Part shown: one piece after another, positions 9,875 to 57,632 of the stretch
Layout: each line of letters opens with the position of its first letter
How positions within the stretch are numbered: the stretch's first letter is position 1
NCBI GenBank assembly: GCA_023512255.1
Contig: JAILZY010000006.1
Coordinates: 13,585-77,584, forward strand
Source of the DNA: a bacterium
GTDB lineage: Bacteria; SZUA-182; DTGQ01
Direction: 5' to 3'
Length of the DNA: 64,000 bases
Program-made: the position numbers and the translations under genes
The notes under the pieces: model-generated
The model's input: the letters and a program-made list of their open reading frames with translations, nothing else
Told to the model about the DNA's origin: nothing
Databases searched by the model: none

Positions 9875-9981
9875 CGCTCTTATTTATTAGCTACCATTGA
9901 GAGACATAATAAGAGCTAAGCCCCTTCGAGGGTTTATGGTTGTTCTGATATAGGGTTTATGGTGTCTGATATATAAGAGCG
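9875..9981 (+). mobile_element. MITE copy 1 (107 bp), CGCTCTTAT terminal inverted repeats
   Basis: Near-identical to the copies at 14053, 49537 and 57520. Flanks taatcttt/aacccttt match at only 5 of 8 positions (eroded target duplication). Confidence 0.88.
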
Positions 9982-10087
9982 AACCCTTTTTAAGCCTAAC
10001 TTTCTTTTTCTTTTTTCTCTCCCTTAGGAGAGAATTTGATTGCTCAAAATAGAGTTAATAGAGTTAGAGAAAAAATAAAAAATCTTA

Positions 10088-10117
10088 TTGACTCATCAGC
10101 ACTCTTAATGCTACTAT
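10088..10117 (+). promoter_or_regulatory. Candidate sigma-70 promoter (TTGACT-N18-TACTAT, extended -10 TGn)
   Basis: Motif match by eye about 320 bp upstream of the PilZ gene; no experimental support. Confidence 0.35.
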
Positions 10118-10435
10118 TATAAAAATTACCTAACAAGGTATTTTCTCTTCGAAACGTCTATCTCTCAAAGCAATTCAAGGCGAATAGTAACTAACCATGG
10201 CTGTCTTGGGTATTTTACTCAAGGGGCGATGGTATTCTTCTGAAAGCAGAAAGTGTGGAAAGACAAGTGGTTTTGTGGTCTAATCTATATGGTTTTAATC
10301 TATAAGCAGTACCATGTATAAGCAGTACAATGAGGGAAAAGGGATAAGAGATAAGAGTTATCGCTACTGAGTTAGTCATTATGATTATCTGGGTAGTCAG
10401 GATGATTATTTCAACAGCATCTCGATAGTAAGGAG

Positions 10436-11122
10436 ATGAGATCTGAACTAATGGCGGAAAGCATCTCTGCTCAAATTAAGGAAAGAGAGACAATTCTGGA
10501 TGTTGGTCTGGTAATTTTTATTCAACCGAAAGGAAGCCCCAAAAACATTCGCTATAAAACCGCAGTGGTAGGCTGGAAGACCGATTATCTTGTTATTATT
10601 GATATGCCCATATTAAATGGAACATATGTCAACCTGGTTGAGGGATCAAGCTGCATTGTTCGCTACATTCGCTGCGGTGATGCTTATGGATTTGAAACCA
10701 AAGTGATAAAAAATATCAATGACGCCAGACTCCCATTGATTTATCTTAGCTACCCAAAATCCGTGGAAAAGATTTCCCTTCGACAACACCCCAGAATTCA
10801 AACCCGAATACCGGTACAGATTGAGGTAGCGGTTGAGGAGGAGAAAAGGCGGGAAGTGAGGGGGAATATCTTGGACTTGAGCGTCGGAGGCTGCCTTCTG
10901 GAGATTGAAGGCGCTGCTTCTCAAAAAGTTGACCTGGATATTAACCAGAGACTAAAGCTTGTTTTTACCCTCAAAAACAGTGCAGAGTGCGTTGTAGAGA
11001 TTTTCGCCATGATCAAAAGGGTTCAGAAAACGCCGAATAATATCATGGCTGGTGCGCAATTTGTTGATTTATCTCCAGATAATTTTGAAAAAATTCGCCA
11101 TTTCTGTGAATCACTGACTTAA
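10436..11122 (+). CDS. c-di-GMP-binding PilZ-domain flagellar brake protein (YcgR-like)
   Basis: N-terminal PilZNR-like beta domain. Both c-di-GMP motifs are intact: RQHPR (RxxxR) and DLSVGG (DxSxxG). Confidence 0.85.
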   Translation: MRSELMAESISAQIKERETILDVGLVIFIQPKGSPKNIRYKTAVVGWKTDYLVIIDMPILNGTYVNLVEGSSCIVRYIRCGDAYGFETKVIKNINDARLPLIYLSYPKSVEKISLRQHPRIQTRIPVQIEVAVEEEKRREVRGNILDLSVGGCLLEIEGAASQKVDLDINQRLKLVFTLKNSAECVVEIFAMIKRVQKTPNNIMAGAQFVDLSPDNFEKIRHFCESLT

Positions 11123-11380
11123 AAGTGATGATAAGAGCCTACAGATTAAATAGCCTATCCAAGCCTCTGTCCGGGAGGATAATTCTGCTCTCACTTTGGG
11201 GGAGGTAGGGATGGTCGTTTATAAACTTCGCGATTTATGATAAAAATTGTGCTTACTTAGCTTGCTGAAATATATTTAGAGCACATTAATTTTGTGTATT
11301 AATTACGTATTGAATTGATTATGGTGATGGTTGTCCACAGTGGCTAAAAACAGGCTTCTCAACCCCCAGCAGGAACTTGT

Positions 11381-12763
11381 ATGGCCAGAAAAAACGTAAA
11401 GAATGTTCTGTTAGTTGATGACGAAAAAAAGATTCACGAGGCTCTCGCTGAATATTTTGATAGCAAATCCTACCGACTAATCAGTGTCTTTGATGGATAT
11501 GAGGCTCTGAAGAAAGTCGAGGAGGAGAAGGTTGATATAGTTCTTCTCGATATCAACCTGCCCGGCATGAGCGGTCTTGAGACCCTGCGAGAGCTTAAAA
11601 AGATCGACTCTCAGCTCATTGTCATCATCATAACCGGATACGGAACAGCAGACACAGCTATCGATGCCATGAAGTGCGGCTGCTACGATTACGTTACCAA
11701 ACCCTTCCGACTGATGGAGATCAAAAATGTAATCGAAGCTGCCCTAATTGACCGAGCCTACCATAAAAAAAATAGGATTACTACCTCTCTCCTTCCCTCT
11801 CAGGCCGGTAGCATACCGATTATTGGGCGAAGCAAAAAGATGCAGGAGGTGTATCGGCTCATTGCCAGAGTAATCAATACCGACTCAACGGTCCTGATTC
11901 AGGGCGAGAGCGGCACTGGCAAGGATTTGGTAGCTCGAATTCTCCACTTTAATGGACCGCGGGCCAACAAACCATTTGTTACTGTCAACTGTGCGGCTAT
12001 TCCAGAAAATCTCCTCGAGAGCGAGCTCTTCGGACATGAAAAAGGGGTCTATACCGGCGCCCATATCGCCAGAAGAGGAAAATTCGAGCAGGCTGATGGA
12101 GGGACCATATTCCTAGATGAAATCGGCGATATGAGTCTAAATACTCAGGCTAAAATTCTGCGGGTCATGCAGAGTAAAACCTTTACCCGAATTGGAGGGG
12201 AGAAAAATATTTACGCCGATGTTCGGTTGATTGCCGCCACAAATAAAGAGCTACGAAAGGCTATGAAAGAGGGGCTCTTTCGTGAGGACCTCTTCTATCG
12301 GCTCGATGTCCTTCCACTGACCCTGCCCTCGCTGAGAGAGAGGAAGGAGGACATTCCTGATCTGATCAACTATTTTATCGCCCGCTACAATGAGAGTATT
12401 AACAAAAAGGTCTCCTTTGTATCACCTGAGGCTATGGATTTGCTTATGCGGCATGACTGGCCGGGAAATGTCCGAGAGCTGGAGCATGCTATCGAGCATG
12501 CTATTGTTCTGGCCAACGGATATGTGTTGCTGCCCGAACACCTGCCTGACAGCATTAAGGTTCAGGCTCAGAAAAACACCTCTATTTCTTTGGAACTTGG
12601 TCTTTCCCTTGAAGAAGTGGAAAAATTTTATATTCAAGAGACCCTGAAGATGGTGAGTGGAAATCAAACCAAGGCAGCTAATATCCTGCGTATTCATCGA
12701 AATACCCTGCATCGCCTGATGGAAAAGATGAACATCAAGCCTACGAAGGATGACTACGCCTAA
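11381..12763 (+). CDS. Sigma-54-dependent two-component response regulator (NtrC/FleR family)
   Basis: Receiver domain (LVDDE, LLDINLP, KPF), AAA+ domain (GESGTGKD, FLDEIGDM, DLFYRL, WPGNVREL) and Fis-type HTH. Confidence 0.92.
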   Translation: MARKNVKNVLLVDDEKKIHEALAEYFDSKSYRLISVFDGYEALKKVEEEKVDIVLLDINLPGMSGLETLRELKKIDSQLIVIIITGYGTADTAIDAMKCGCYDYVTKPFRLMEIKNVIEAALIDRAYHKKNRITTSLLPSQAGSIPIIGRSKKMQEVYRLIARVINTDSTVLIQGESGTGKDLVARILHFNGPRANKPFVTVNCAAIPENLLESELFGHEKGVYTGAHIARRGKFEQADGGTIFLDEIGDMSLNTQAKILRVMQSKTFTRIGGEKNIYADVRLIAATNKELRKAMKEGLFREDLFYRLDVLPLTLPSLRERKEDIPDLINYFIARYNESINKKVSFVSPEAMDLLMRHDWPGNVRELEHAIEHAIVLANGYVLLPEHLPDSIKVQAQKNTSISLELGLSLEEVEKFYIQETLKMVSGNQTKAANILRIHRNTLHRLMEKMNIKPTKDDYA

Positions 12764-12802
12764 TCTGCCTTTTCTTTCTCCTTATTTCCTCTGCCGCTGA
12801 AA

Positions 12803-12890
12803 AGACTTTCAGCCTCGAAGAGAAGTTCAAGAGGGTGTCATGATCAGACTTTCAGCCTCGAAGAGAAGTTCAAGAGGGTGTCATGATCAG
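12803..12890. repeat. Perfect 43-bp tandem duplication
   Basis: agactttcagcctcgaagagaagttcaagagggtgtcatgatc occurs at 12803-12845 and 12846-12888. Confidence 0.97.
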
Positions 12891-13074
12891 CCGCCCCCTA
12901 TTTCCCCAAAAAAACATTGCCTACCTACTACAGATAAGTGCCCGACCATAAAAGGTTTATAACTTGAGATAATGACGTAGCAGTGGACAAGTGAAATAAT
13001 TATCCTGGCCAGTAGGTTATAACTCATTATGGTTGGTCGCTTATGATTTTTATTTTCAGAAGCCTATCGAAAAC

Positions 13075-14034
13075 CTATCGAAGCCAGTAAGGTTTTTTTA
13101 TTTCTTCAAAAGCATGGATCGCAGCGATAATACCCTCGGCGCAGGCAGTGGCTATCAGCTTTATCTCTCCGGTAACATCCCCGGCTGCAAATACTCCCTC
13201 GATATTGGTCTGAAGGTTTTGATCAACCCTGATTGAACCATCCTCCCTGACGATAAATCCGTTATTTTCAAGAAATCGTCTGATCGGCTCAAACCCTATG
13301 GCTATGAAAAGCTCATCAGCCTTTATACTCTCTGTTTTGCCTGTTTCAAGATCTACCACCTGGACGCCCTGAAGCAGGCCGGAAGCTTTTTTGGAAATTT
13401 TCACTGGGCTAGTGTGGTATAGCACTTTTACGCCCATCTGCTGGGCAAGCTTGACGCTGCTTTCCTTTGCCTTGGCATAAGCCTCCCTAACCAGAACGGT
13501 GGTTTTGGCTGCAACCTCGCTCAACTGGATAGCGGTGTCAAAGGCGTGGTCTCCACCACCCACAATCACTACCTCTTTTCCCTTGAACCTGGATGGAACT
13601 TCCACTCGATAGTGGACATTGGGACCGGTATAATTCTTCAATATCTCAAGCTTTTTGGGAACATTATAGGATCCGGTGCAGAGGATAACCCTTTTGGCCT
13701 GATACTCTCCCAGGCTGGTTTTTACCACGAGGGGTGGCGTTTCATCCTCTCTGCTGCTGGCTGATCTTTCAATTCTTACAACCTCTTCATCGCAGCGGAT
13801 CTGCGCTCCGGCATTCTGAGCCTGAATGACCAGCATCCTGCTCAGCTCTTTGCCCAAGATACCCACCGGAAAACCAGGGTGATCCCTGATGATCTTGTCA
13901 GGATAGACAAGTGTAGGCAACCCACCCGGAAAGCTCTGCTTTTCGATTACCAGACTCTTTAACCCTCGGTGAGCCGTATTGGCCGCAGCCGTTAAACCAG
14001 CAGGCCCTGCACCCACTATAAGCACGTCATACAT
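13075..14034 (-). CDS. Ferredoxin-NADP+ reductase, thioredoxin-reductase-like type (YumC family)
   Basis: GAGPAG FAD motif, GGLPTLVYPDKIIRDHPGF, GGGDHA NADPH motif and FAAGDV. No redox CxxC. Confidence 0.75.
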   Translation of the reverse strand: MYDVLIVGAGPAGLTAAANTAHRGLKSLVIEKQSFPGGLPTLVYPDKIIRDHPGFPVGILGKELSRMLVIQAQNAGAQIRCDEEVVRIERSASSREDETPPLVVKTSLGEYQAKRVILCTGSYNVPKKLEILKNYTGPNVHYRVEVPSRFKGKEVVIVGGGDHAFDTAIQLSEVAAKTTVLVREAYAKAKESSVKLAQQMGVKVLYHTSPVKISKKASGLLQGVQVVDLETGKTESIKADELFIAIGFEPIRRFLENNGFIVREDGSIRVDQNLQTNIEGVFAAGDVTGEIKLIATACAEGIIAAIHAFEEIKKPYWLR

Positions 14035-14052
14035 ACTGTGGATAATCCATTA

Positions 14053-14131
14053 CGCTCTCATATATCAGACACCATAAACCCTCAAAGGAGCTTAGCTCTT
14101 ATTAGGGAATGGTAGCTAATAAATAAGAGCG
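14053..14131 (-). mobile_element. MITE copy 2 (79 bp, internally deleted), inverted orientation
   Basis: Ends cgctctcat...ataagagcg with an exact 8-bp target duplication atccatta (14045-14052, 14132-14139). Confidence 0.92.
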
Positions 14132-14280
14132 ATCCATTAATGTAATGGTTAACTTTATCTTAATGGTTAATTTTCAATAATTCCCATAATTTTCCCATAT
14201 TTCCGTAATTTTTCTGTTTCGCAATCCGTTTCAGCATAATCATAATCTATATATATTTCACCATAAATATATTTCACCAT

Positions 14281-14334
14281 AAGAAAAAGAAAGGCCGCGG
14301 CGAATGCTGTCTCGCACACGGCCTTCTTTTTCTT
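14281..14334 (-). terminator. Probable intrinsic terminator downstream of the giant repeat-protein gene
   Basis: Inverted repeat aagaaaaagaaaggccg...cggccttctttttctt with a T-rich tail on both strands, about 110 bp past the 14444 stop. Confidence 0.55.
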
Positions 14335-14443: not shown

Positions 14444-17400
14444 TTATGGCGTATACTTTCCACAGTTATAATCCTCAAGCTCCTTGAGCCACTTTTTGAT
14501 CTGGGTCTTCTGGCCCTTGGTCAATCTTGGGTACCATTGCCGAGAGCTATAGACAGCCAGAAAAGAATCGATCTCGCTGAGTAGCTCTTCGAGACTAGCC
14601 GAGTCGTTTATTTGAACGCTAGCCTCTGCGCCGCTTGCCAGATTTAATTTGCAGGCAAGCACCTGAGCATAGAGATTAGCCAGGTTGCTCATCCTGCTAA
14701 TCTGCTTCGGGGCAAGAATATCATAGACTTGATCGCAGGTGCTGATCTTGATACTCTGCTGGCCGCCTGGAGTCCCAAGCCAGATAGGCAGCAGGGATTT
14801 GAGATAGTCGGAGTCAGCATAAGCATCATCTTTCCATGAGGATAGGCTCCGTGGCCGAGGAGAGGGAGCGGCGGTTGCGGTTTGCGGTGCGCTGCTGGCC
14901 GCGGCTGTCAGGGTAATGGGCAGCGGCGTAGTTATGGCTGAGCAGCGATCCCAAGGAAGTTGATCCCACTGGCCGACACTGCCAGCGCAGCTTATCTCCT
15001 CTCCATTGGTTAGCCGCACAGCTTCAACCTTGGCGCTCAGACCTTCATTGGTGGTAACCTTGGCGCTGCCAGTATTGGTATCTTGACCATTGTAGAAGAT
15101 CGTCTGCGGTGCGCTGGTCGGCTCAAGCTTTTCTGCGGGGTTAAACTCTGTCCCAACCTTGATCAACAGGGTTCGACTCTCCAGAGCTGGGATGCTGCCC
15201 ACCGTCCAGGTCAGCTTTTCCTTCTCAAATCCGCCGGGGCTTGGCGGAGGGGCAATGATTACATGGGTGGGGTCGCTGGTTTCAAAGGGATAGGCTTCAT
15301 TGTTGAAGGTGTCGGTAACCACTACGCCAGTTAGGGGAGTATCATTGCAGTTTTCCACTGTGATCTCAACCAAAAAGTAGAACACCGGGCTACCTTGAGC
15401 TATCTCCTCTTTGACCGCGACCGGAATGATCCGGTCAGTGAGAAACAGGTTGTCCGAGGTGCGATAGGGGCCATTGATGGTCTTGGTCAGCTTCAGGCAG
15501 GGCTTTGCTGGCGACACTCCGAAGTAGCAGCTTGGATCTTTGGCTGTGAGCTCATTGCCAAGCGGATCAAGAGCAGTAGCAGTGCCAGTATTCTTATACT
15601 GTCCGGCCTGGGCTGTGCCAGTGGCCGTGCAGGTCATGGATTCACCTTGATCTAGGGTAGTTTTTGGACAGGTGATGAGACCTAGCTTATCATCAGATAC
15701 AGTAATGCCGGTAAGTTTAGTATTGCCGGTATTTTTAACTTCATAGGTCCAAGTAATCTGATTACCCACCGGAATTTCAGGACATGGAGTGGTATTGGCA
15801 TCCTGCCCATTGGTGAGTTTCTTGAGGCTGAGGCCGCTGGCTACGCCAAAGTAGCAGCTTGGATCTTCAGCCGTGAGCTCATTGCCGGATGGATCAAGAG
15901 CAGTAGCTGTGCCGTTATTCTTATACTGTCCGGCCTGGGCTATGCCTGTGGCCGTGCAGATCATGGACTCACCCACCCCTAGGCTGTCATTCGGGCAGTC
16001 GATTTCGCCTAGCTTATCATCGACTACCTTAATGTCGGAGAGGGTAGTATTGCCAGTATTTTTAACTTCATAGGTCCAGGTAACCTGATCGCCAACTTGG
16101 ATCAGTGGACCAGGGGAAGTATTGGCATCCTGCCCATTGGTGAGTTTCTTGAAGCTGAGGCCGCTGGCTACACCGAAATAATAGCTGGTGTCGGTGAAGA
16201 TAAGCTTTTCCCCTCCTGGGCCTGTGGCTGTAGCGGTGCCGGTATTTTTATACTGTCCGGCCTGGGCTGTGCCTTCAGCTTCGCAGGTCATAGATTCGTT
16301 CGGCTCCAGGGTGGTTTTTGGGCAGGTAACCGTAGACCCCTCACTGTCCGTCACGGTTACATTCGATATGGTGACATTGCTGGTATTGGTAACCTCATAT
16401 TTCCAGTAAACCGGATTGCCAACCGGAATCGAGGGGCCGGGTGGTGAATCAACATGCTGGTCATTGGTAAACTTCTTGATAGTAATTCCACAGGTGCAGC
16501 CAAAGTAATGGCTGGGATCTGAGTCCATAAACTCTCTCCCAAGCGTATCCAAGGCCTTGACGATCCCTACATTTTTATACTGGCCAGCTGTGGCTGTACC
16601 AGTGGCTTCGCAGGTCATGTACTCACCCACCGCTAGGCTATTCTTCGGACAGGCGATGGGACCTAGTTTATCATCATATACAGTAATGCCAGAGAGCGGG
16701 GTATTACCAGTATTGGTAACTTTATAGCTCCAGGTAACCAGACCACCAACTGGTATTGAGGGGCCGGGCGGTGAGTTAGCATCCTCACCATTGGTGCTCT
16801 TCTTGATGCTGACCCCGGCACTGACTCCAAAGTAATGGCTAGGGTCAGTGTCGATAAGCTGATTGCCGGTTGAGTCTTTGGCGGTAACCGTAGCCAGGTT
16901 GGCATACTGGCCGAGCGCGGCTGTACCAGAGGCTTCGCAGGTCATGGACTGACCAGGACCTAGAGTATTCTTCGGGCAGGTGATTAGGCCTAGCTTATCA
17001 TCAGATACGGTAATGCCAGTGAGAGTATCATCACCAGTGTTAGTAACTACGTAGCGCCAAGTAACCAGCCCACCAACGGGTATTGAGGGGCCGGGTGGTG
17101 AGTCAGCATCCTGGCCATTGGTGCTTTTCTTGATGTTGATCCCACTGGTGTAGCCGAAATAGTGACTAGGATCTTCGGCCGTGAGCTGATTTCCGAGAAT
17201 ATCTGTGGCCGTAGCTGTAGCTATATTTTTATACTGGCCAGCCCGGGCTATACCGCTGGCTGTACAGGTCATGGACTGACCAGGATCTAGCATAGTAGCA
17301 GGGCAGGTGATGGCGCCTATCTGATTGTCGACTACTTTGATATTACTGATCGGGATATTGCCAGTATTAGTTATCCGATAGGTCCAAAAAACCTGACTAC

Positions 17401-20314
17401 CAGTGGGTATTCTGGGGCCGGGCGGTGAGTCGGCATCCTGGCCATTGGTGCTCTTCTCGATGCTGATCCCACTGGTGTAGCCAAAATAGTGGCTAGGATC
17501 ATTGAAGGTGAGCTGCTGTCCATCAGGAGCTGTGGCCGTGACTGTGCCGGAATTTGTGTACTGTCCAGCCTGAGCAGTGCCGCTGGCTGTGCAGGTCATG
17601 GACTGGCCAGCCTCCAGGGTATCCTGTGGGCAGCTAACAATAACTCCTTGATTATCAACTACTTTTACGTTTGATAAAAGAACATTGCTGAGGTTGCTAA
17701 CCTCGTATGTCCAGAGAACCTTAGAGCCAGGCAAAACAAAAGGGCCAGGAGGAGTATCGGCATCCTGACCGTTGGTGAATTTCTTAATTTTGATGCCGCA
17801 AGTGCAGCCAAAGTAATGGCTTGGGTCTTCAGCCATAAGCTGATTTCCCAAAGGATCCTTAGCCACAACTTTGCCGATGTTGCTATGCTGACCTGGTTGA
17901 GAGATCCCCTGGGCTGTGCAGGTCATGGACTGGCCCGCATCCAGGGTATCCTCGGGGCAGATGACCGCAACTGCCTGATCATCCGATACCCTGATTTCAG
18001 AGATAGGCACATCGCTGATGTTAGTAACCTCATAGCTCCAGTAAACAGGATCGCCGACACTTATGGAGGGGCCGGGAGGAGTATCGGCATCCTGACCGTT
18101 GGTGAATTTCTTAATTTTGATGCCACAGGTGCAGCCAAAGTAATAGCTGGAAGAGCTGGCTGTAATCTGTTTGCCATCTGGATCGGTGGCGATGACACTA
18201 CCAATGTTTTCGTGTTGGCCTACTTTGGCCAATCCGCTGGCAGCACAGGTCATGGACTGGCCTGCCTCCAGGGTATCCTTGGGGCAGATGACCGAAACTC
18301 CCTGATCATCCGTGACCTTGATATTACTTAAGATAACATTGCCGGTATTGGTTACCTTGTAGGTCCAGGTGATCGGATCGCCGACCGTCAGCTTGATGCC
18401 TGGTGGCTTGTCGGCAATTTGATCGTTGATAAATTTGGTCATGATAAGATTGCTGGCCGAACCAAAGTAATGACTAACATCGCTGGCCATGACTGTATTG
18501 CCAGCAGGATCGAAGGAGATAACAGTGCAGATATTCGTGTACTGACCAGGTTTGGCCTTACCGCTAGCTGTGCAGGTCATGATCTCACCTGGGGCTAGAT
18601 TATCCTTCGGGCAGCTAACAGTCACATCCTGATCATCAATTACGCTCACCTGGCTGAGAGGGACCTCGCCAGTATTGGTAACGATATATTTCCAGGTAAC
18701 TTCACTGTCTACAGGGATGAATGGGCCTGGTTTTTCTTTGGCCTCCTGGTCGTTGGTCAATTTCTGAATGGTTATGCTTCCACCAGCTACGCCAAAGTAG
18801 TTAGCCGGATCAGAATCATAGAGAATCTTTTTAACTTTCTTCAGGCACTTGGCGGTAACTTTGGCCGTATTTGTCTGCTGTCCGCTCTTGGCTGTAACAG
18901 GACCAATTATGCACTCAAATGATGCCCCACCTTTCAGAACTTCCGGCCCCTGGCAGGTTTCTGTGGAATATTGGGAATCGGTCAGCGACACTGAGTAAAG
19001 CTTAAAAAGGTTAGGATTGGTAACCACAATTTTAAAGTAGAGTTTACTTCCCTCCGCCACCCTGGGACCTGGCGGCGTATCAGCATCAATAAAGGTTTTT
19101 CCTTCATCTGTGGAGATATACTTTTTGACCGTGATCAGCGGCTGGCAGGGTTTGCAGCACAGGCAGCAGAGCATAAAGAGGCGGCCATCAAGGTATTGGA
19201 TTCCCTGCGGCCTGCTCCAGGTTAGATAATCGCAGATCACCCGCTCATCGCTGAGGCCATCATCCCTGCCAAGGACGATAGGCTCGCTTAGATCAATCCC
19301 TGATTCCAGCGGACAGACTGCTCGAAGCAGCTCCCCTGTGGTAAAGTCAACTATGGCAATTTCATCCTCAGAGTCAGAATAGGCCGTATCTCGACTGAGA
19401 TAGAGAACCTGCCTCATCTCCCCTTCCCAGGGGATGCAGGCATATGAGATGCCCGAATAGGTAGAGGGATAAAGTGACAGGGCAGAGCTTGCCTTATCAA
19501 TAGTTATCAGCCGACATGGTGAGTCTTGAAAATTACCCGCCTCATCGAGAGGGATTTTCCACACGGTGTTGTAGAGAAGATTGCTGGTGATAGCCAGCAG
19601 GAAGTTCTCTCCACTAGCAGGATCAGAGACATAGTCTAGGCCGCCGACAGGCTCGGGCAGAATCACAAATTTACCGCTCAATCCCTGTCGAACCATCCGA
19701 CCTTCTGAAAAATAAAACCTATCCTCTTTCTGCGCTAGGCCACTGATCCGGGTTTTTAGATTCAGGTGCCTGCTCAGTTTCCCGGTCTCAAGGTCAAGTT
19801 GAAAGATAGCATTATTGATTGAAAGATTGCCGCTATTGTTGAGAAGATAGATGAGGGGCTTATCAGATGTTCCCGTACCGCTTATCTCCCAGGTGTTAGC
19901 CCCACACTGCCAGGCACCACTTGGCTCAAGCAGCCAAAAATTTTGCGGACCCTTGAGCTGAAGGGTTAAGGGATCAAGCTCAACCAGAGCCTGGCCGATG
20001 ACCTCATGCTGAAGATCAGCAGCCCTTAACCATCGACCACTGTCCCTGAATGCAGTTGATTGGCTTGGGGGATTCGAGCCTCTGATTGATCTAGTGGAAG
20101 GGTTGACTGAGGTTGGGGGAGAATACATCAACTGTGGCTCTAGGTTAGTAGCTGTGGGCTCTAGGTTAATAGCTGTGGGACTTAGATTTTTCAGTTTCGA
20201 GGGAGGTGTTGATTCGGCAGCCAAAAAAGCTACCCTACCTGGAGAGGAGTTTAGGCCAATTAAAATGAGTGTAAGCATCATGACGAGCAATCTTTGACTT
20301 TGTCTCATGTTCAT
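14444..20314 (-). CDS. 1956-aa secreted surface protein with 11 tandem ~110-aa Ig-like repeats (DUF11/DUF7507-like)
   Basis: Sec-type N-terminus. Repeat consensus KKxTNGQDAxxPPGP...VTWxYxVTNTG...CPxxxL..GESMTC...xYFG occurs 11 times (nt ~15518-19135), followed by one divergent unit and a helical C-terminal domain. Confidence 0.85.
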   Translation of the reverse strand: MNMRQSQRLLVMMLTLILIGLNSSPGRVAFLAAESTPPSKLKNLSPTAINLEPTATNLEPQLMYSPPTSVNPSTRSIRGSNPPSQSTAFRDSGRWLRAADLQHEVIGQALVELDPLTLQLKGPQNFWLLEPSGAWQCGANTWEISGTGTSDKPLIYLLNNSGNLSINNAIFQLDLETGKLSRHLNLKTRISGLAQKEDRFYFSEGRMVRQGLSGKFVILPEPVGGLDYVSDPASGENFLLAITSNLLYNTVWKIPLDEAGNFQDSPCRLITIDKASSALSLYPSTYSGISYACIPWEGEMRQVLYLSRDTAYSDSEDEIAIVDFTTGELLRAVCPLESGIDLSEPIVLGRDDGLSDERVICDYLTWSRPQGIQYLDGRLFMLCCLCCKPCQPLITVKKYISTDEGKTFIDADTPPGPRVAEGSKLYFKIVVTNPNLFKLYSVSLTDSQYSTETCQGPEVLKGGASFECIIGPVTAKSGQQTNTAKVTAKCLKKVKKILYDSDPANYFGVAGGSITIQKLTNDQEAKEKPGPFIPVDSEVTWKYIVTNTGEVPLSQVSVIDDQDVTVSCPKDNLAPGEIMTCTASGKAKPGQYTNICTVISFDPAGNTVMASDVSHYFGSASNLIMTKFINDQIADKPPGIKLTVGDPITWTYKVTNTGNVILSNIKVTDDQGVSVICPKDTLEAGQSMTCAASGLAKVGQHENIGSVIATDPDGKQITASSSSYYFGCTCGIKIKKFTNGQDADTPPGPSISVGDPVYWSYEVTNISDVPISEIRVSDDQAVAVICPEDTLDAGQSMTCTAQGISQPGQHSNIGKVVAKDPLGNQLMAEDPSHYFGCTCGIKIKKFTNGQDADTPPGPFVLPGSKVLWTYEVSNLSNVLLSNVKVVDNQGVIVSCPQDTLEAGQSMTCTASGTAQAGQYTNSGTVTATAPDGQQLTFNDPSHYFGYTSGISIEKSTNGQDADSPPGPRIPTGSQVFWTYRITNTGNIPISNIKVVDNQIGAITCPATMLDPGQSMTCTASGIARAGQYKNIATATATDILGNQLTAEDPSHYFGYTSGINIKKSTNGQDADSPPGPSIPVGGLVTWRYVVTNTGDDTLTGITVSDDKLGLITCPKNTLGPGQSMTCEASGTAALGQYANLATVTAKDSTGNQLIDTDPSHYFGVSAGVSIKKSTNGEDANSPPGPSIPVGGLVTWSYKVTNTGNTPLSGITVYDDKLGPIACPKNSLAVGEYMTCEATGTATAGQYKNVGIVKALDTLGREFMDSDPSHYFGCTCGITIKKFTNDQHVDSPPGPSIPVGNPVYWKYEVTNTSNVTISNVTVTDSEGSTVTCPKTTLEPNESMTCEAEGTAQAGQYKNTGTATATGPGGEKLIFTDTSYYFGVASGLSFKKLTNGQDANTSPGPLIQVGDQVTWTYEVKNTGNTTLSDIKVVDDKLGEIDCPNDSLGVGESMICTATGIAQAGQYKNNGTATALDPSGNELTAEDPSCYFGVASGLSLKKLTNGQDANTTPCPEIPVGNQITWTYEVKNTGNTKLTGITVSDDKLGLITCPKTTLDQGESMTCTATGTAQAGQYKNTGTATALDPLGNELTAKDPSCYFGVSPAKPCLKLTKTINGPYRTSDNLFLTDRIIPVAVKEEIAQGSPVFYFLVEITVENCNDTPLTGVVVTDTFNNEAYPFETSDPTHVIIAPPPSPGGFEKEKLTWTVGSIPALESRTLLIKVGTEFNPAEKLEPTSAPQTIFYNGQDTNTGSAKVTTNEGLSAKVEAVRLTNGEEISCAGSVGQWDQLPWDRCSAITTPLPITLTAAASSAPQTATAAPSPRPRSLSSWKDDAYADSDYLKSLLPIWLGTPGGQQSIKISTCDQVYDILAPKQISRMSNLANLYAQVLACKLNLASGAEASVQINDSASLEELLSEIDSFLAVYSSRQWYPRLTKGQKTQIKKWLKELEDYNCGKYTP

Positions 20315-44941: not shown

Positions 44942-44992
44942 ACCTTCACGTTTTATAAGAATAAATAAGGAAAAAAATTTAATAAAAACCGC

Positions 44993-48754: not shown

Positions 48755-49447
48755 ATGAATATCGGGATGTATCGGGCCGTAGCTGGCTGCATTGTTCAAC
48801 AAGAGCGACTTGATGCCGCTAGCATGAACATGGCCAATAGCAGCACTATCGGCTACAAAGCCATTCGCCTTAGCGTGGGATTCAACAACGATGTCGTCCA
48901 GGTGGATAGAAAAAGCATCGACTTTACCGAGGGGGGAAGGCAGGATACCAGGAATAAGTTAGATCTTGCCCTCGACGGCGATGGTTTTTTCGTTGTCCAG
49001 ACCAGCCGAGGGCCTGCCTACACTAGAAAAGGGAATTTTTCCCTAAATGCCCAAGGTGAGCTGGTTACTCAGGAAGGAATGCCGGTTCTCGGACAAAATG
49101 GACCGGTGAAGATCACAGGCCATGATATCCACATCAGCGCTGACGGAACGATTCGGGCTGATGGCCGCAGGGTGGATAAATTGCGTTTGGCTACTTTTCG
49201 CAGGCCCTATCCCTTTGATACTAGAAGCGGGAGCCTGTTCTTTCCAGATCCGGCGACAGGAGCACAGGAAGAGCCAGCCAAGGGAGCAGTGGTCCAGCAG
49301 GGCCAAATTGAGCTCTCTAATGTCAACCTGATGAAGGAGATGGTTCGGCTGATCGAGATCTCGACCAGTTATGAGTCATGCCAGAAGGTTATTCAGACTG
49401 TGGATGAGATGGACCAAAAGATAATCAATGAAACCAATAAGATGTAA
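48755..49447 (+). CDS. flgF: Flagellar rod protein FlgF
   Basis: NMANSSTIGYK, DLALDGDGFF, YTRKGNF, LSNVN; precedes flgG. Confidence 0.88.
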   Translation: MNIGMYRAVAGCIVQQERLDAASMNMANSSTIGYKAIRLSVGFNNDVVQVDRKSIDFTEGGRQDTRNKLDLALDGDGFFVVQTSRGPAYTRKGNFSLNAQGELVTQEGMPVLGQNGPVKITGHDIHISADGTIRADGRRVDKLRLATFRRPYPFDTRSGSLFFPDPATGAQEEPAKGAVVQQGQIELSNVNLMKEMVRLIEISTSYESCQKVIQTVDEMDQKIINETNKM

Positions 49448-49536
49448 TCATAAGATGAGCTCTATCAGAGCTTGAGGTGAAGGGCAAAAAAAATATTATG
49501 ACTGACTGAAAAACTGGCAGATTTCGAATAAATAGT

Positions 49537-49649
49537 CGCTCTTATTTATTAGCTACCATTAAAGAGACATAACCCTAATAAGAGCTAAGCCCCTTTCTAG
49601 GGTTTATGGTTGTTCTAATATAGGGTTTATGGTGTCTGATATAAGAGCG
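49537..49649 (+). mobile_element. MITE copy 3 (113 bp) between flgF and flgG
   Basis: cgctcttat...ataagagcg with an exact 8-bp target duplication taaatagt (49529-49536, 49650-49657). Confidence 0.93.
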
Positions 49650-49677
49650 TAAATAGTACAAGGAAGGAGCATAAGAT

Positions 49678-50466
49678 ATGATTCGCTCTCTATGGATCTC
49701 AGCTTCCGGCATGGAAGCCCAAACACTCAATATTGATGTCATTTCCAATAATCTAGCTAATGTCAACACTACGGGTTTTAAGCGTAGCCGAGCTGATTTT
49801 CAAGATCTTCTCTATCAAACTCTTCGACCTGCCGGAGCCTCTTCTTCTTTGGGTACCCAGGTCCCTACCGGCATCGAGCTAGGGCAGGGAGCCCGAGCAG
49901 TGGCTGTTCAAAAGCTCTTCCTTCAAGGGGATTACCAGAAAACAGAGAATGAGCTTGATTTGGCTATCGAAGGAGATGGCTTTTTCCAGGTCATCAAACC
50001 AAACGGCGAGATGGCCTATACCCGCTCAGGCGCCTTGAAATTGGACAGCCAGGGCAGGCTGGTAACCTCTGACGGATTCCCAATCGCCCCTGAGATCACC
50101 ATTCCTGCTGATACGGAGAAAATCAACATCGGCTCAGATGGTCTGGTTTCAGTTAAACTGGCTGGCCAGGAGAGCTTTACTGAGCTTGGGAGCATCGAGC
50201 TGGTGAATTTTCCAAACCCATCCGGCCTGAGCAGTATTGGCCGCAATCTCTATGAGAGAACAGGTGCCTCGGGCGATCCGGTTGCCGGCACCCCTGGCCA
50301 GGATGGCTTAGGGACCATTGCTCAAGGGTATCTTGAGATGTCGAACGTCAGCATCATGGAGGAGATGGTCAATATGATCATTGCCCAGAGGGCCTATGAG
50401 GTCAATTCCAAGGCCATGCAGACCGCAGATGAAATGATGCGCCTGGCTAGCAATGTGAAGAGATGA
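49678..50466 (+). CDS. flgG: Flagellar distal rod protein FlgG
   Basis: [30 protein letters not shown]. Confidence 0.97.
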
Positions 50467-52363: not shown

Positions 52364-53482
52364 ATGAGAATTGGCACAATCGCATCAACTCTCCTGTGCC
52401 CACTCATCATGAGCCTGGCCGGAGTCTGGCTCCCTGAATGTTGCCAGGCAAGTCGGATCAAAGACTTGGTCCATATCCAGGGCGTCAGGGAAAACCAGTT
52501 GATCGGCTATGGTCTGATCGTCGGTCTAAAGGGAACCGGAGACAAAGGGGGAGGCAAGTTCACCATCAATTCGCTGGCCAATATGCTGAGAAAGCTCGGA
52601 GTATCGGTTGATCCTGCTGAACTCAAGGTTAAAAATGTAGCCGCAGTCATTGTTACCGCTACCCTGCCTCCCTTTGCCAGACGGGGAGAGCGGATCGATG
52701 TAACTATCTCATCCCTAGGGGATGCTAGTAGTCTTCAGGGCGGCACACTGCTTTTGACCCCGCTTAAGGGAGCAGATGATCAGGTCTATGCCGTAGCTCA
52801 AGGACCTCTGTCAGTGGGTGGATTTGCCGCCGAAGGTGGAGCCGCAGGAGTGCAGAAAAATCACCCCACTGTAGCCAGAATCCCACAGGGAGCCTTGATC
52901 GAGCGGGAGGTCCCTTTTAGCCTCAATCCCCAAAGCCCCTTGATAATGACTCTTGATAGAGCAGATTTTGTAACCGCGGCCAGAATTGCTAAGAAAATTA
53001 ATGACACCCTAAATATGGACCTTGCCCATGCTCAGGATCCCCGAAGCATCAGCCTGACTATTCCCTCTCAGTTTCAAAAAAATCTGGTGGAACTTGTGGC
53101 CACTATTCAGGAGATTGAGGTCGAGCCAGATACCCAGGCTCGGGTAGTGATCAATGAGCGCACCGGCACCGTAGTGGTCGGCGAGAATGTCCGAATTTCC
53201 AGCGTGGCCATATCACACGGCAATCTGAGCATTGAAATTAAGGAAACTCAGCAGGTCTCTCAGCCCCCTCCCCTCTCGCCAGGAGAAACCCAAAAGGTTC
53301 CTCAAACAGATATCACTATCCATGAGGAGCGGGGAAATTTGATCCCTCTGCCAGCCAACACTACGGTTGGCGAGCTGGTCAGGGCACTGAATGCCATTGG
53401 GGTAAGCCCAAGAGACCTGATTGCCATCCTGCAATCCATCAGGGCCGCTGGAGCACTCCATGCAGAGTTGGAAATCATATAA
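52364..53482 (+). CDS. flgI: Flagellar P-ring protein FlgI
   Basis: SRIKDL, NQLIGYGLIVGL, SLQGGTLL, AGALHAEL. Confidence 0.97.
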   Translation: MRIGTIASTLLCPLIMSLAGVWLPECCQASRIKDLVHIQGVRENQLIGYGLIVGLKGTGDKGGGKFTINSLANMLRKLGVSVDPAELKVKNVAAVIVTATLPPFARRGERIDVTISSLGDASSLQGGTLLLTPLKGADDQVYAVAQGPLSVGGFAAEGGAAGVQKNHPTVARIPQGALIEREVPFSLNPQSPLIMTLDRADFVTAARIAKKINDTLNMDLAHAQDPRSISLTIPSQFQKNLVELVATIQEIEVEPDTQARVVINERTGTVVVGENVRISSVAISHGNLSIEIKETQQVSQPPPLSPGETQKVPQTDITIHEERGNLIPLPANTTVGELVRALNAIGVSPRDLIAILQSIRAAGALHAELEII

Positions 53483-53526
53483 CCCAAGATTGGAGATAAC
53501 TAACCCAAGATTGGAGATGACAAGCT

Positions 53527-53871
53527 ATGAACCCGATCGAAAACTTTAGCCTAACAAGATTCTGGCCGCCGCAGACACCCACCTGCTCGCTCGCCGCCGC
53601 AAGCCCCAGCGAGACCAAAGTGCGGCATTCGCAGCCGACACGATTTGAACTTGAGCAGGTTTGCACTGAATTTGCCTCCATCCTTTTTCAGACCCTCCTA
53701 AAAAGCATGTATTCCACCATCCCCAAAACATCGCTCTGCCCACAACTTGAGGCTAAGAATCTGGTTAACTCCTTCCTTGATCAGGGACTTGTCCGATTCA
53801 TGGCCCTGCAAAATGCAGCCGGCTTGAAAGACCTACTTATGGCTCAGATTACCAAGGCAGCCAAACCTTAA
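53527..53871 (+). CDS. flgJ: Short, single-domain FlgJ (rod-binding, no muramidase domain)
   Basis: LEQVCTEFASILFQTLLKSM resembles the FlgJ N-terminal domain; follows flgI. Confidence 0.7.
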   Translation: MNPIENFSLTRFWPPQTPTCSLAAASPSETKVRHSQPTRFELEQVCTEFASILFQTLLKSMYSTIPKTSLCPQLEAKNLVNSFLDQGLVRFMALQNAAGLKDLLMAQITKAAKP

Positions 53872-54016
53872 CTCTTTCTTCATTTAGCAAGATAGCCGCA
53901 AGATCTTATCCTTCCAAAATACAATATCTTCCGATCTATTAAATCATTTTGAAATTTAATAAATAATTAAAATAATATTAATTTAATAATTACCAAAATT
54001 TAATAACTATATTTAC

Positions 54017-54046
54017 TTGACTTTTTAAGACTAAATAAATTAAAAT
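54017..54046 (+). promoter_or_regulatory. Candidate sigma-70 promoter (TTGACT-N18-TAAAAT)
   Basis: Motif lies in a very AT-rich tract upstream of the lipoprotein gene; a chance match is possible. Confidence 0.3.
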
Positions 54047-54160
54047 AATATTAAGATAAAATTAGATCAATTTACTTAAATAAAAAATTATATTAACATA
54101 TTGATATATATTTTTATTGATGAATTTTTATTCATGAATATTGACAAAGGAGTATATATC

Positions 54161-55534
54161 GTGGTGCGAAAGACTAAAACTACTGTATTGATAAGGACCG
54201 CTGTATTGATCATACTATGTGTAGGCTTATGGTTTCTTCATGGATGCAAGAGCGAAGAGGATCAAGATGTAAGCAAAAAAAGTGATTATCATGATATTGG
54301 CACAGGCGATAATACAGGCAATAATAATAGCTTGTCTCAAGCCAATAATGTCCCGCCCGCGGTCCATATAGATCGGCCTCTTCAGGGCAGCACCTTCACA
54401 GAAGGCGATTCTGCTGCCCTCATAACCGGGATTGGTAAAGACCAAGAAGATGGGCCCCTGGCCGACAATTCACTTCAGTGGTGGGTATCAAAATGGTGGA
54501 GCTCAAATCAATGGTCGGGATCAGATGTAGATGACGATGGCAGAAACCCTCTGGCTTGGGGCCCATCCTTTTCTCCAGGCAATCTATCATCTGGTCAATA
54601 CATCATTACCCTGATAGCAGCGGATAGTGCTGGGTTAAGCTCAAGTGATTCGATCAATATCAGGATCTGCTCAAAATGCGATGCTGACTCCCAGCAGCCC
54701 CAAGGCCAAAACCAAAAAGCCAATGTTGTGGTGCACGGGATAATAAACCGGCTCATGGATGATCAAGGCTACCTTGTGCTCCTTGGTGAGCTGAAAAACA
54801 TTGGCTGCCGGGATGCGACCTTTTGCAAAATAACCTTTACCCTGCTGGATAGCTCGCTTCAACCTATTGGAGACCCTGTATTCGCCTATGTACATGGTAC
54901 AAACAAAACCATAACCCAACAGGATGTTGAAAATAATGCTATTCTTGAGCCAGGGGTTTGCGGTGGGTTTTACCTGTCTACGAATGTGCCCGATGAAAGT
55001 GTTTCATTATATGAGTATAAGATTAGCTATCGAGGAGATGAGACCTCTTCTCCTGGTGCCGATTTGGTGGTCGATTACCCGATAGAGCCTGGTGCCAATG
55101 AGACAGATGGTTTTCTGAAGCTGTCAGGTAGAGTAAGGAACAGGGGAAGCAAAACAGCCCTGTTTAGCCAGATAACTTTTATCTTAAAGGATCGCAATGA
55201 TATGGTTATTGACGTAATCAGTGCGGATATTCAAGGCTCATTTGTTTATTTGCCGGATATTTATGCTTATACCGATACAGCCGTGCTGGCTGGAAAAACA
55301 GGAGTCTTTACCGCCCAGTCAATAAGGCTCTATCCCAATGAAGTGGACTTTGATCGAAGCTACTACACCCTAGCCTGGCGAGACTGCCAAAAAACAATAT
55401 CTTCTAGAGCCTCACGGCAGCGAGGAGGTGGCTTGAGCGCTTTTGCCAAAACTTCCACCGCCCTCTGCCACGATCCTGGCCAAGCATGTCGAGAGCGAGA
55501 CAAAAAAATTGATGAGTTGGCAGAAAAAATGTGA
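54161..55534 (+). CDS. Lipoprotein with an Ig/PKD-like domain and two FxLYD-like domains
   Basis: GTG start after AAAGGAG; lipobox LHGC. Two units of the type GELKNIG...ITFTLLD and GRVRNRG...ITFILKD. Confidence 0.7.
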   Translation: MVRKTKTTVLIRTAVLIILCVGLWFLHGCKSEEDQDVSKKSDYHDIGTGDNTGNNNSLSQANNVPPAVHIDRPLQGSTFTEGDSAALITGIGKDQEDGPLADNSLQWWVSKWWSSNQWSGSDVDDDGRNPLAWGPSFSPGNLSSGQYIITLIAADSAGLSSSDSINIRICSKCDADSQQPQGQNQKANVVVHGIINRLMDDQGYLVLLGELKNIGCRDATFCKITFTLLDSSLQPIGDPVFAYVHGTNKTITQQDVENNAILEPGVCGGFYLSTNVPDESVSLYEYKISYRGDETSSPGADLVVDYPIEPGANETDGFLKLSGRVRNRGSKTALFSQITFILKDRNDMVIDVISADIQGSFVYLPDIYAYTDTAVLAGKTGVFTAQSIRLYPNEVDFDRSYYTLAWRDCQKTISSRASRQRGGGLSAFAKTSTALCHDPGQACRERDKKIDELAEKM

Positions 55535-55608
55535 AAATTGAGCCAAAAGCACTAAAAAGCACTAAGGCTAGACCGTCTGCCCTGGCTAGGGAAGCAAGCC
55601 CTAAAGGC

Positions 55609-56478
55609 TTAAGCAGCCGCTCTCGCGTAAATCTTGCCGCCAATCAGGATCAGGCTGGCCGTCGCGGTCAAGAGGATGGCAAAATCGGCTCCCAGCCTTG
55701 AGGGTGAGGCAGGCATTTTTCCAGCCAGCATCAGGATGCGAAGCGCATCCACCTCGTAGGTCAGTGGATTGATTTTGGCTATTGCCCTAAGCCAGCGGGG
55801 CATCATCGAAATTGGATAGATGGCGTTACTGGCAAAAAAAAGCGGCATGGTCAGAATCTGGCCTATGCCCATAAAGCGCTCACGGGTTTTAACTAGACAG
55901 GCAATAATCAGGGAGAAGGTTGAGAAAAAGGCTGCGCCGAGGATGACGATGATCACGACACCCAAGAGGGCCAGCGGTGTCCAGTTTATTTTCACCCCCA
56001 GGATGAAAGCCAGAAGATAAATGATCACCGCCTGGGCCAGGCTGCGCACACCGGCAGCTAGCGCTTTTCCCAGCACCAGGGCCGGCCGTGGGGTAGGAGA
56101 GGCCAAAAATTTGTGAATGATCCCTAAATCTCTCTCCCAGATAATGGCGATGCCGTAGAAAATAGAGATAAAAAGGACGCTTTGAGCCAGAATACCAGGG
56201 GTCATGAAGTCAAGATAGCACAAGCCTGGCGTAGGGATAACCCGACTATGGGTGAATACCTGTCCGAATACCAAAAGCCACAATAGCGGCTGAACAGCTC
56301 GCATGATAAGCTCGGTTGGATCATGGAGGATTTTCCTGACCTCAAAGCCAGCTATGGTGAATGTCTTGCTCAGAAACCGAATGATCGGCATGATGAGTGG
56401 TCCGGTCCAAGAAAGCCCTGGCCCCAAGAAATTACTAGCCAAGTCGCTTGGCAGTGCGCCGTGTTCTTGAGGTTTCAC
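55609..56478 (-). CDS. ABC-2 type exporter permease (DrrB-like)
   Basis: AVQPLLWLLVFG, WERDLG, PLFFASNAIYP, NPLTY. GTG start at 56478 follows GGAGG. Confidence 0.9.
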   Translation of the reverse strand: MKPQEHGALPSDLASNFLGPGLSWTGPLIMPIIRFLSKTFTIAGFEVRKILHDPTELIMRAVQPLLWLLVFGQVFTHSRVIPTPGLCYLDFMTPGILAQSVLFISIFYGIAIIWERDLGIIHKFLASPTPRPALVLGKALAAGVRSLAQAVIIYLLAFILGVKINWTPLALLGVVIIVILGAAFFSTFSLIIACLVKTRERFMGIGQILTMPLFFASNAIYPISMMPRWLRAIAKINPLTYEVDALRILMLAGKMPASPSRLGADFAILLTATASLILIGGKIYARAAA

Positions 56479-57235
56479 GGTAGCCGCCTCCTCCTGATTC
56501 CAATGCCTGACCCGTATAGTGGGCAAAGACATCATTTAGGGTGGCTCCATCCGAGCCGATTGAGGCCTTAAGTTTAGCCGGACTGCCAAGAGCAACCATC
56601 CGGCCAAGGTGCATTACAGCCACTCGATTGCACAGAGCATCGGCCTCTTCCAGATAGTGAGTGGTCAGGAAAATTGTTGTGCCATAGGTAACCCGAAGCT
56701 TTTCAATGTGCTTCCAGACCGCGGTCCGGGCAAGAGGATCAAGCCCTACGGTCGGCTCATCCAGAAAGAGCAACCGAGGCCGGTGCAGCAAAGACTGGGC
56801 AATCTCAAGCCGTCTGATCATTCCTCCTGAGTAAGTGCGCACTAACTTGTTAGCCGCATCGGATAAGCCCATGAACGAGAGAGCCTCATCCACCCTGCTC
56901 TTTTGCTCTGAGCGGGGCAGATCATAGAGCTTGGCAAAAATGAGTAGATTCTCATAGCCGGTCAGGGAACCATCAGCAGATAAAACCTGCGGTACATAGC
57001 CGATCAGCCGCCGCACCTCAGAAGATTTGCGTATAAGGTCAAAGCCAGCTACTGTGGCTGTGCCCGATGTTGGTGAAAGCAGGGTGGTCAGCATCTTGAT
57101 GGCCGTACTCTTGCCCGCCCCATTTGGGCCAAGCAGCCCAAATACCTCACCAGCCTTTACGCAGATATTAAGACCATCTACCGCTATCATAGGGCCGAAG
57201 CGGCGAGTGAGTTTTTTTGTCTCCAGAATGATCAT
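56435..57235 (-). CDS. ABC exporter ATP-binding protein (DrrA/NodI-like)
   Basis: GPNGAGKST, YSGGMIRRL, LFLDEPT, TTHYLEEA. Confidence 0.95.
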   Translation of the reverse strand: MIILETKKLTRRFGPMIAVDGLNICVKAGEVFGLLGPNGAGKSTAIKMLTTLLSPTSGTATVAGFDLIRKSSEVRRLIGYVPQVLSADGSLTGYENLLIFAKLYDLPRSEQKSRVDEALSFMGLSDAANKLVRTYSGGMIRRLEIAQSLLHRPRLLFLDEPTVGLDPLARTAVWKHIEKLRVTYGTTIFLTTHYLEEADALCNRVAVMHLGRMVALGSPAKLKASIGSDGATLNDVFAHYTGQALESGGGGYRETSRTRRTAKRLG

Positions 57236-57249
57236 GATTTTTCCCCAGG

Positions 57250-57392
57250 GAAATGTCCGCGCCTTGTGTGAATTATCCCTATGCCGTGTCCATCTAACCC
57301 ACAGAATTACAGAAATGTCCGCTCTTTGGGTGGATTATCCCCTTAGGTTGATTATCCCATTTGAAATATCCGCACCTTGTGCTGATTGTCCA
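57250..57392. repeat. Three degenerate 30-bp direct repeats with 32- and 21-bp spacers
   Basis: GAAATGTCCGCGCCTTGTGTGAATTATCCC (57250), GAAATGTCCGCTCTTTGGGTGGATTATCCC (57312), GAAATATCCGCACCTTGTGCTGATTGTCCA (57363). Confidence 0.8.
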
Positions 57393-57519
57393 GTTTGTAT
57401 TGCCGAGGCTGGCGCCCGTGTTCTAAGCCATTATTGGCACATGGGGTTAAGTTTATAACAGAATGTCTTTTCGGTCAATTTTTGAGATTATCTTTACCAC
57501 CTCTTATTGAAAAGATATT

Positions 57520-57632
57520 CGCTCTTATTTATTAGCTACCATTGAGAGACATAACCCTAATAAGAGCTAAGCTCCTTCGAGGGTTTATAGTTGTTCTGAT
57601 ATAGGGTTTATGGTGTCTGATATATAAGAGCG
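57520..57632 (+). mobile_element. MITE copy 4 (113 bp)
   Basis: cgctcttat...ataagagcg with an exact 8-bp target duplication aagatatt (57512-57519, 57633-57640); the right junction is itself tandemly duplicated. Confidence 0.93.

Follow-up and report, generated by a model that had tools for sequence, protein, structure and literature searches.

The 64-kb window under study (64,000 nucleotides, positions 13,585 to 77,584 of contig JAILZY010000006.1) harbours four copies of a short repeat that is almost certainly a MITE (miniature inverted-repeat transposable element) of recent mobility, and the best explanation of the data is that it is mobilised in trans, probably by an IS1595-family transposase of the ISH4-like clade. 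The four copies align over their whole length, are all intergenic, and were located exactly where, and on the strands on which, an earlier note on this sequence had placed them:

9875-9981, forward strand: copy 1, 107 bp, 6 nt short of the consensus
14053-14131, reverse strand: copy 2, 79 bp, short form
14045-14052 and 14132-14139: exact target-site duplication of copy 2, ATCCATTA
49537-49649, forward strand: copy 3, 113 bp
49529-49536 and 49650-49657: exact target-site duplication of copy 3, TAAATAGT
57520-57632, forward strand: copy 4, 113 bp, with 98% identity to the consensus
57512-57519 and 57633-57640: exact target-site duplication of copy 4, AAGATATT
57520-57542 and 57610-57632: left and right inverted repeats of copy 4
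57558-57567: internal sequence of copy 4 resembling the inverted repeat, TAATAAGAGC
57580-57602 and 57603-57623: tandem sub-repeats of copy 4, 23 nt and 21 nt

The family consensus is a non-coding sequence of 113 bp, both ends of which read CGCTCTTAT, a word that occurs seven times in the window against 0.6 expected from shuffled sequence, while for the left 24-mer and for a 21-mer on the right-hand side the count is four apiece, with 0.00 expected. The shared ends described in the earlier note are therefore real, but the inverted repeat extends further than the 9 nt there implied: it opens with CGCTCTTATTTATTAG..., spans 23 nt and is imperfect (19/23 matches), with the outer 9 nt perfect (left arm CGCTCTTATTTATTAGCTACCAT; right arm, read inwards, CGCTCTTATATATCAGACACCAT). 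Within the right arm lies, in addition, the tandem sub-repeat, made up of AGGGTTTATRGTTGTTCTGATAT and then AGGGTTTATGGTGTCTGATAT. Copy 1 agrees with the consensus in all aligned columns (100% identity). The single terminal mismatch previously remarked on belongs to copy 2, one of whose ends is CGCTCTCAT; this copy lacks one 23-nt sub-repeat, as had also been reported, together with ~11 nt of the left arm. The duplications flanking copies 2, 3 and 4 proved, as claimed, to be exact AT-rich 8-mers, each different from the others; the 8-mers flanking copy 1 (TAATCTTT, 9867-9874; AACCCTTT, 9982-9989) agree at 5/8 positions only, corresponding to a decayed duplication, and copy 1 consequently looks like an old insertion. 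A size below 300 bp (79-113 bp in the window), the lack of any open reading frame (ORF), inverted repeats and a duplication of fixed length that differs from copy to copy are among the features by which a MITE is recognised.

An nhmmer search of related metagenome contigs returned 155 matches, 101 of which were full-length, reducing to 77 unique insertion sites, and a scan of JGI metagenome contigs with the end pattern gave at least 120 matches. The 77 sites comprised a main size class of 113/114 bp, a class of ~90 bp minus one sub-repeat, and rarer variants, the median identity to the 113-bp consensus being 97%. No insertion lay inside an ORF of at least 100 amino acids (0/77), and relative to co-directional neighbours 24 were in the sense and 17 in the antisense orientation (p = 0.35). 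The window has 4 copies in its 64 kb, and loci picked via FlgG, without regard to the MITE, have one in every 20 kb; a density of 1 per ~16-20 kb implies ~180-225 copies per genome. In assembly X4 (3.59 Mb), the summed contig word-depth over the element was ~3,000-4,000 at its lowest points and 16-17 in the flanks, which, the peaks being inflated by overlapping unitigs, was read as ~200 copies (plausibly 150-400). The genome-wide count recommended in the earlier note thus yields roughly 200 copies per ~3.6-Mb genome; its figure of four copies in 64 kb is correct locally, but the family as a whole is far larger.

Two further forms of the element were recorded at other loci. A mini-derivative of ~58 bp, with the right-arm motif present twice between CGCTCTTAT and TAAGAGCG ends, was seen at L159:3878-3935 and in one X1 contig. 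The sole copy found in GTDB (L001:4258-4370, contig JAILZT010000041.1 of the metagenome-assembled genome (MAG) 'Paenibacillus sp. HOT.CON.154') sits directly upstream of a 16S-tRNA-tRNA-23S rRNA operon. The other half of its contig is GC-rich; the contig probably results from mis-binning or chimerism and derives from a relative of the window lineage, and its 16S sequence had no match in the metagenome runs of the window.

The non-autonomous character and 8-bp duplication proposed for the element were upheld across the family: of the 77 unique sites, 38 had a perfect 8-bp duplication, as did 26 of the 47 whose ends were intact, and no other length fitted. The first base of the duplicated 8-mer was A in 33/38 cases and the last was T in 34/38, positions 2 and 7 favoured A and T respectively, and the bases bordering the 8-mer were A/T in all cases but one, from which it follows that the preferred target is the palindrome W|AAnnnnTT|W. 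Overall the duplications were 78% A+T, the background being 53%. A palindromic target is what would be expected if a symmetric dimer of the transposase cut the two strands 8 bp apart.

Evidence of recent movement came from syntenic contigs in JGI metagenomes 3300005573, 3300009503 and 3300027863, two ENA assemblies and three Logan runs, one of which (a Logan contig of SRR15214128) was 99.99% identical to the window over 7.9 kb; the compared strains diverged from the window by ~1-6% over aligned segments and by ~3% beside the insertions. Copy 3 occupies its site in the window, in JGI contig L210 (TAAATAGT-MITE-TAAATAGT in both) and in contig L209, which starts with 30 nt of the MITE. By direct alignment, ENA contig L204, JGI contigs L206 and L207 and Logan contig L208 instead carry an empty site, GATTTCGAG-TAAATAGT-ACAAGG, with one 8-mer; a second ENA contig, L205, exhibited the same 9-nt alignment overlap at this position, and the site was also empty in an X4 contig. 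At the copy 2 site, X2, X3 and X4 contigs jump from 14040 to 14143 with ATAATCCAT between and a single ATCCATTA. The copy 1 and copy 4 sites appeared occupied in every run, to judge from contigs that continue into sequence of MITE length. The precise empty sites at copies 2 and 3 in close strains are those for which the earlier note had suggested looking, and they bear out its proposal of recent mobility.

Although site 4 was always occupied, its occupants differ. In strains L204-L207 the MITE is inverted and flanked by the duplication AAAGATAT, while in the window it lies in the forward orientation, shifted by 1 bp, with the duplication AAGATATT and then TAAGAGCG-AAAGATAT:

57640-57655, forward strand: relic beside copy 4, consisting of TAAGAGCG, the final 8 nt of a MITE end, and then AAAGATAT

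When copy 4 and one of its duplications are taken out, the remaining sequence, AAAGATAT-TAAGAGCG-AAAGATAT, is the right junction of the reverse copy with both of its duplications. It looks as though an earlier copy at site 4 was lost by imprecise excision or deletion, and that re-insertion followed; slippage duplication of the junction is an alternative origin for the relic. Inversion in situ was ruled out, since the insertion point is shifted by 1 bp, the 8-mer is different and part of the other copy persists as a relic. A polymorphic tandem duplication of terminus plus target duplication, ...TAAGAGCG-AAGCCTAA-AATAAATAAATAAGAGCG-AAGCCTAA, was also evident on comparing L113:8030-8090 with L108:7440-7470, and as it shares its architecture with the relic beside copy 4, the process that generates such duplications appears to recur. 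A separate comparison, of L162:1650-1800 with window positions 2482-2501, revealed a MITE in a related strain and none in the window; that copy has no AAGAGCG terminus, its flanking duplication is of 16 bp (AATATCGAAATAAACT) instead of 8 bp, and it is an aberrant or rearranged insertion.

The same data bear on whether the repeat is a transposon at all, rather than a small-RNA gene or a hairpin of the REP or terminator type spread by recombination. Copy 4 folds, as RNA or single-stranded DNA, into a stable hairpin (-40.1 kcal/mol, z = -4.7), an internal stem plus a T-rich run gives a weak terminator-like pattern, and all copies are intergenic; such a hairpin, however, follows automatically from inverted repeats, no Rfam match was obtained at the gathering threshold anywhere in the window, and a function at the RNA level that would bias the orientation of copies with respect to transcription was ruled out by the non-significant 24:17 ratio. 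Because each copy has a different 8-bp duplication, and because precise empty sites exist, a purely RNA-based or regulatory origin is excluded, and we regard the general proposition as having almost no chance of being correct. Side-effects of the inserted MITE on neighbouring transcripts, for example that of flgF-flgG, are possible.

With regard to the enzyme responsible, the earlier note had cited CGCTCTT ends with 8-bp direct repeats as the signature of the ISH4 group of IS1595, and this signature held good on the sequences of ISH4 and its relatives. ISH4 itself, an element of Halobacterium salinarum read here from the Halobacterium plasmid PHS4, is 1004 bp in length with CGCTCTT ends (as read, CGCTCTTGGG... 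and CGCTCTTGGGTAGAGG...) and an 8-bp duplication, ACTATCTA. Four other haloarchaeal members of ~1,000 bp end in CGCTC(T/A)T, the duplication being an exact 8 bp in Natribaculum (AATCCTCA) and 7/8 in Natronococcus, with none seen in the other two. By way of contrast, the ends of IS1595 proper are CCTGATT, and those of three other bacterial members are different again. The termini and 8-bp duplication of the MITE fit the ISH4 group. A zinc-ribbon probe for IS1595, used as a lead only, retrieved annotated IS1595-family plasmid genes. An exhaustive phmmer search with an ISH4 transposase identified 9,627 relatives (E ≤ 0.001), of which full-length sequences from non-halophiles were 29-41% identical, and two profile searches delimited an ISH4-like subclade with named members from Methanothrix, Bathyarchaeota (including a hot-spring bin), MSBL1 and Poribacteria. 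The termini and duplications read from elements of this kind were as follows:

P0294 element: termini CGCTCATATATATAA
P0295 element: termini CGCTCATATC
P0307 element: termini CGCTCTTACC and CGCTCATAAA; no evident duplication
P0429 element: termini CGCTCATATAAAG; duplication AAGGAAAA
P0436 element, ~983 bp, on 14 contigs: termini CGCTCTTATTAGG and CGCTCTTATTAAG; duplication GACAACCT
P0423: left end CGCTCTTGTCACG
P0411: right end CGCTCATACCC
L236, Bathyarchaeota MAG locus: right end CGCTCTTGTTAAGG
L237, Bathyarchaeota MAG locus: left end CGCTCTTGTTACG

To judge from these ends, the CGCTCWT terminus is a trait of the whole ISH4-like clade, with 8-bp duplications present at intact sites. The terminus of the P0436 element, CGCTCTTATTA, matches the MITE over 10 nt on the left and 9 nt on the right, and the 10-nt sequence CGCTCTTATT common to both is the best terminal match between the MITE and the clade. 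The family link is accordingly one of the terminal 9-10 nt and the duplication length: ISH4-group elements and the MITE are alike in their CGCTC(T/A)T termini and in 8-bp duplications that are often AT-rich, but the former are ~1 kb long and encode a zinc-ribbon/DDE transposase of 290-350 amino acids, whereas the latter is a non-coding 113 bp.

The proposed mechanism is one in which a DDE transposase acting in trans in this host would recognise both ends of the MITE, make cuts staggered by 8 bp at the AT-rich palindrome and insert the element there, repair of the stagger then producing the 8-bp duplication. That transposase would most likely be of the ISH4-like clade, with zinc-ribbon and DDE_Tnp_IS1595 domains, because all readable ends of the clade are CGCTC(T/A)T and intact sites have 8-bp duplications. 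The 23-nt repeats and the reiterated sub-terminal ACCATAAACCCT motif may serve as its binding sites.

A number of results weigh against this attribution. Positions 11-23 of the inverted repeats are unrelated to those of each member examined, so the cognate of the MITE is not among these elements, and it is in these inner parts that a transposase usually binds. Where a host is named for the closest clade members it is mostly an archaeon (Halobacteria, Bathyarchaeota, Methanothrix, MSBL1), but the MITE lives in a bacterium. The GGCTCTT end of ISL3 elements, moreover, matches the MITE terminus at 6/7 positions. No transposase was detected in the 64-kb window, either by Pfam scans of its ~45 ORFs or by a search with the ISH4 profile, just as the earlier note had stated, and ~1.1 Mb of host-lineage contigs, analysed by pairing of inverted repeats, all-against-all BLAST, a zinc-ribbon regular expression and the ISH4 profile hidden Markov model (HMM), contained neither a longer element with MITE ends nor an IS1595-type ORF. 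Among GTDB species representatives, exact and degenerate end patterns gave 0 and 1 match, the single match being another copy of the MITE; in IMG/VR, the same pattern found one lone end, which is at chance level; and none of the X1 and X4 contigs reached with end probes of ~35-48 nt ran on into a non-MITE interior. The assignment to IS1595/ISH4 is consequently supported but not proven by these sequences: the shared termini and duplication length advanced in its favour stand, but the check for an IS1595-family transposase with matching ends came back empty in the ~1.1 Mb of host-lineage DNA.

Other searches for a partner gave equivalent results. End pairs up to 6 kb apart in the JGI loci were MITEs, nested MITEs and half-sites only; all-against-all BLAST of ~1 Mb showed no multi-copy element of insertion-sequence size; the zinc-ribbon expression and the ISH4 profile HMM, applied to ~21,000 six-frame ORFs of all loci, found ISH4 itself only; the loose contig ends at the X1 and X4 probes were all MITE variants or flanks; and BLASTN of the MITE against plasmids gave no match. 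As the host-lineage sample amounts to about a third of a genome or less, with short contigs the size of an insertion sequence outside it, the absence of a partner is not established. A variant left arm, ATGCTCACC..., considered as the start of a transposase element, led nowhere, and the ranking of candidate transposases by thermophile amino-acid composition was uninformative, the host ratio being just 1.8. One candidate transposase, on a contig that equals a MITE-bearing one in length (16,503 bp), proved to be from another metagenome.

Movement of the same kind of MITE by a transposase of another family, ISL3 foremost, or of an undescribed one, is unlikely. ISL3 elements terminate in GGCTCTT and duplicate 8 bp of their target, an example being ISArsp7, whose inverted repeats read GGCTCTTCGCGG... 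and whose direct repeat is the 8-bp sequence CCTTTGCC (PMC6305408), and they thus share with the MITE both the duplication length and a ...GCTCTT terminus; a transposase from elsewhere than IS1595 would also be in keeping with the lack of an IS1595-type gene in the host-lineage DNA. However, the window copies and the family consensus start with CG where ISL3 has GG (its terminus being that given in PMC6305408), and the sequences differ past position 7. Furthermore, the first 9-10 nt of the MITE are identical to those of an ISH4-clade element, the CG start is kept in all ISH4-clade ends examined, and the sampled host DNA yielded no multi-copy element of the appropriate size, ISL3-like or otherwise, no search having been aimed at ISL3 genes.

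It is also conceivable, though again with low probability, that the family is an orphan, its transposase lost or external (on a plasmid, in a virus or in a neighbour), and that the polymorphism reflects past bursts, sorting by recombination and occasional deletions. An orphan state or an external enzyme fits all of the data and overlaps with mobilisation by an ISH4-like transposase; no partner emerged from two assemblies or from metagenome contigs, relics and truncated copies do exist, and other abundant bacterial MITE families have likewise been listed without an identified partner (PMC3184786). On the other side stand the 97% identity of copies to the consensus, the difference between strains ~97% identical at two of the four window sites, the two separate insertion events recorded at site 4, and the empty sites with exactly one 8-mer, a state that deletion rarely restores save through recombination between the duplicated copies. 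That the MITE is driven by a mostly archaeal transposase clade through inter-domain transfer in hot-spring communities, or through an extrachromosomal supply, is a speculation to which we attach little weight; an external supply would explain ~200 young copies with no detectable partner.

In structure and function the element is a textbook bacterial MITE and not a new kind of system. Correia and RUP duplicate a TA dinucleotide, whereas the present element duplicates 8 bp at AAnnnnTT. The classical families Correia (Neisseria), RUP (S. pneumoniae), Nezha (Anabaena/Nostoc) and Chunjie (Geobacter) have inverted repeats and flanking direct repeats as here, and are non-coding sequences of ~100-200 bp with many intergenic copies, a stable hairpin, and both filled and empty sites on comparison of close relatives (PMC3184786). 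The MITE differs from these four in its own sequence and ends, in the partner family proposed for it and in the tandemly duplicated sub-terminal unit of its right arm.

The host is an uncultured, flagellated bacterium of Yellowstone hot springs, the window sequence being present in hot-spring metagenome runs. Its genes in the window include those for Trk potassium uptake, biotin synthesis, chemotaxis proteins, a sigma-54 activator and a nearly complete flagellar cluster, the presence in which of FlgH and FlgI identifies the host as a diderm. The best GTDB relative of its FlhA, in a Thermodesulfobacteriota MAG, is just 57% identical, which makes this a deep-branching lineage without a member in that collection. 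The four copies have the following neighbours:

Copy 1: cheX (9366-9860) to the left, a PilZ/YcgR-like gene (10436-11122) to the right
Copy 2: a thioredoxin-reductase-like gene to the left, the gene of a 1956-residue DUF11/DUF7507 repeat protein to the right
Copy 3: flgF (48755-49447) and flgG (49678-50466), within the flagellar operon
Copy 4: an ABC-transporter ATPase gene to the left, the gene of a 483-residue glycine-rich protein to the right

The 1956-residue protein (14444-20314, reverse strand) is of surface type, with at least 10 DUF7507/DUF11 repeats of 327 nt, and the 483-residue protein (57655-59106, reverse strand) has no Pfam match, the low-complexity 3' part of its gene breaking short-read assemblies. 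A 43-nt tandem duplication (12798-12883) lies 3' of the sigma-54 activator gene and is polymorphic, X2-X4 contigs omitting 62 nt and having 18 other letters there. Two 92-nt direct repeats (1258-1349 and 1392-1483), 98% identical and 134 nt apart, cover the end of the ORF at 87-1250, a short gap and the 3' end of a Memo-like gene (1381-2394).

Other repeat families adjoin the MITE in places. A second family of MITEs, ~115 bp long and bounded by CTAYRCTTTTGCA...TGCAAAAGCATAG, was present in L093 (for example at 10110-10230, reverse strand), L118, L123, L153, L179, L192, L198 and L200, and had no copy in the window; it nests, in either orientation, where the right arm of the CGCTCTTAT element runs through ATATAT, suggesting that it targets TA/ATAT. 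Window positions 12935-13045 contain a third repeat, MITE-like and ~110 bp long, with the inverted ends GCCCGACCATAAAAGGTTTATAAC and GTTATAACTCATTATGGTTGGTCGC and a contig depth ~10-20 times that of its flanks in all four runs; elsewhere in the genome, some contigs fuse it directly with the CGCTCTTAT element. The short dispersed repeat CATGAATATTGATAATCACGnCnAnnAACATATTTTT occurs at window positions 2447-2483, in L162 and at L115:6680-6720, and in L115 it is joined directly to a solo 23-nt MITE end.

What is mildly unusual about this MITE is its abundance in a deep-branching thermophile, its affiliation with a mostly archaeal clade and the missing partner. Its analysis contributes a clean target consensus, AAnnnnTT, a possible instance of a MITE without a resident partner, and evidence for conservation of the CGCTCWT terminus across an ISH4-like clade far wider than the halophile elements first described. 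The family accounts for the breaking of short-read assemblies into thousands of contigs and, as its insertions are polymorphic between strains, provides ready-made strain markers for Yellowstone population genomics. It makes up ~0.6% of the genome of this uncultured thermophile, the intergenic regions of which it is still reshaping, with one insertion in the flagellar operon and differences in occupancy among co-existing strains.

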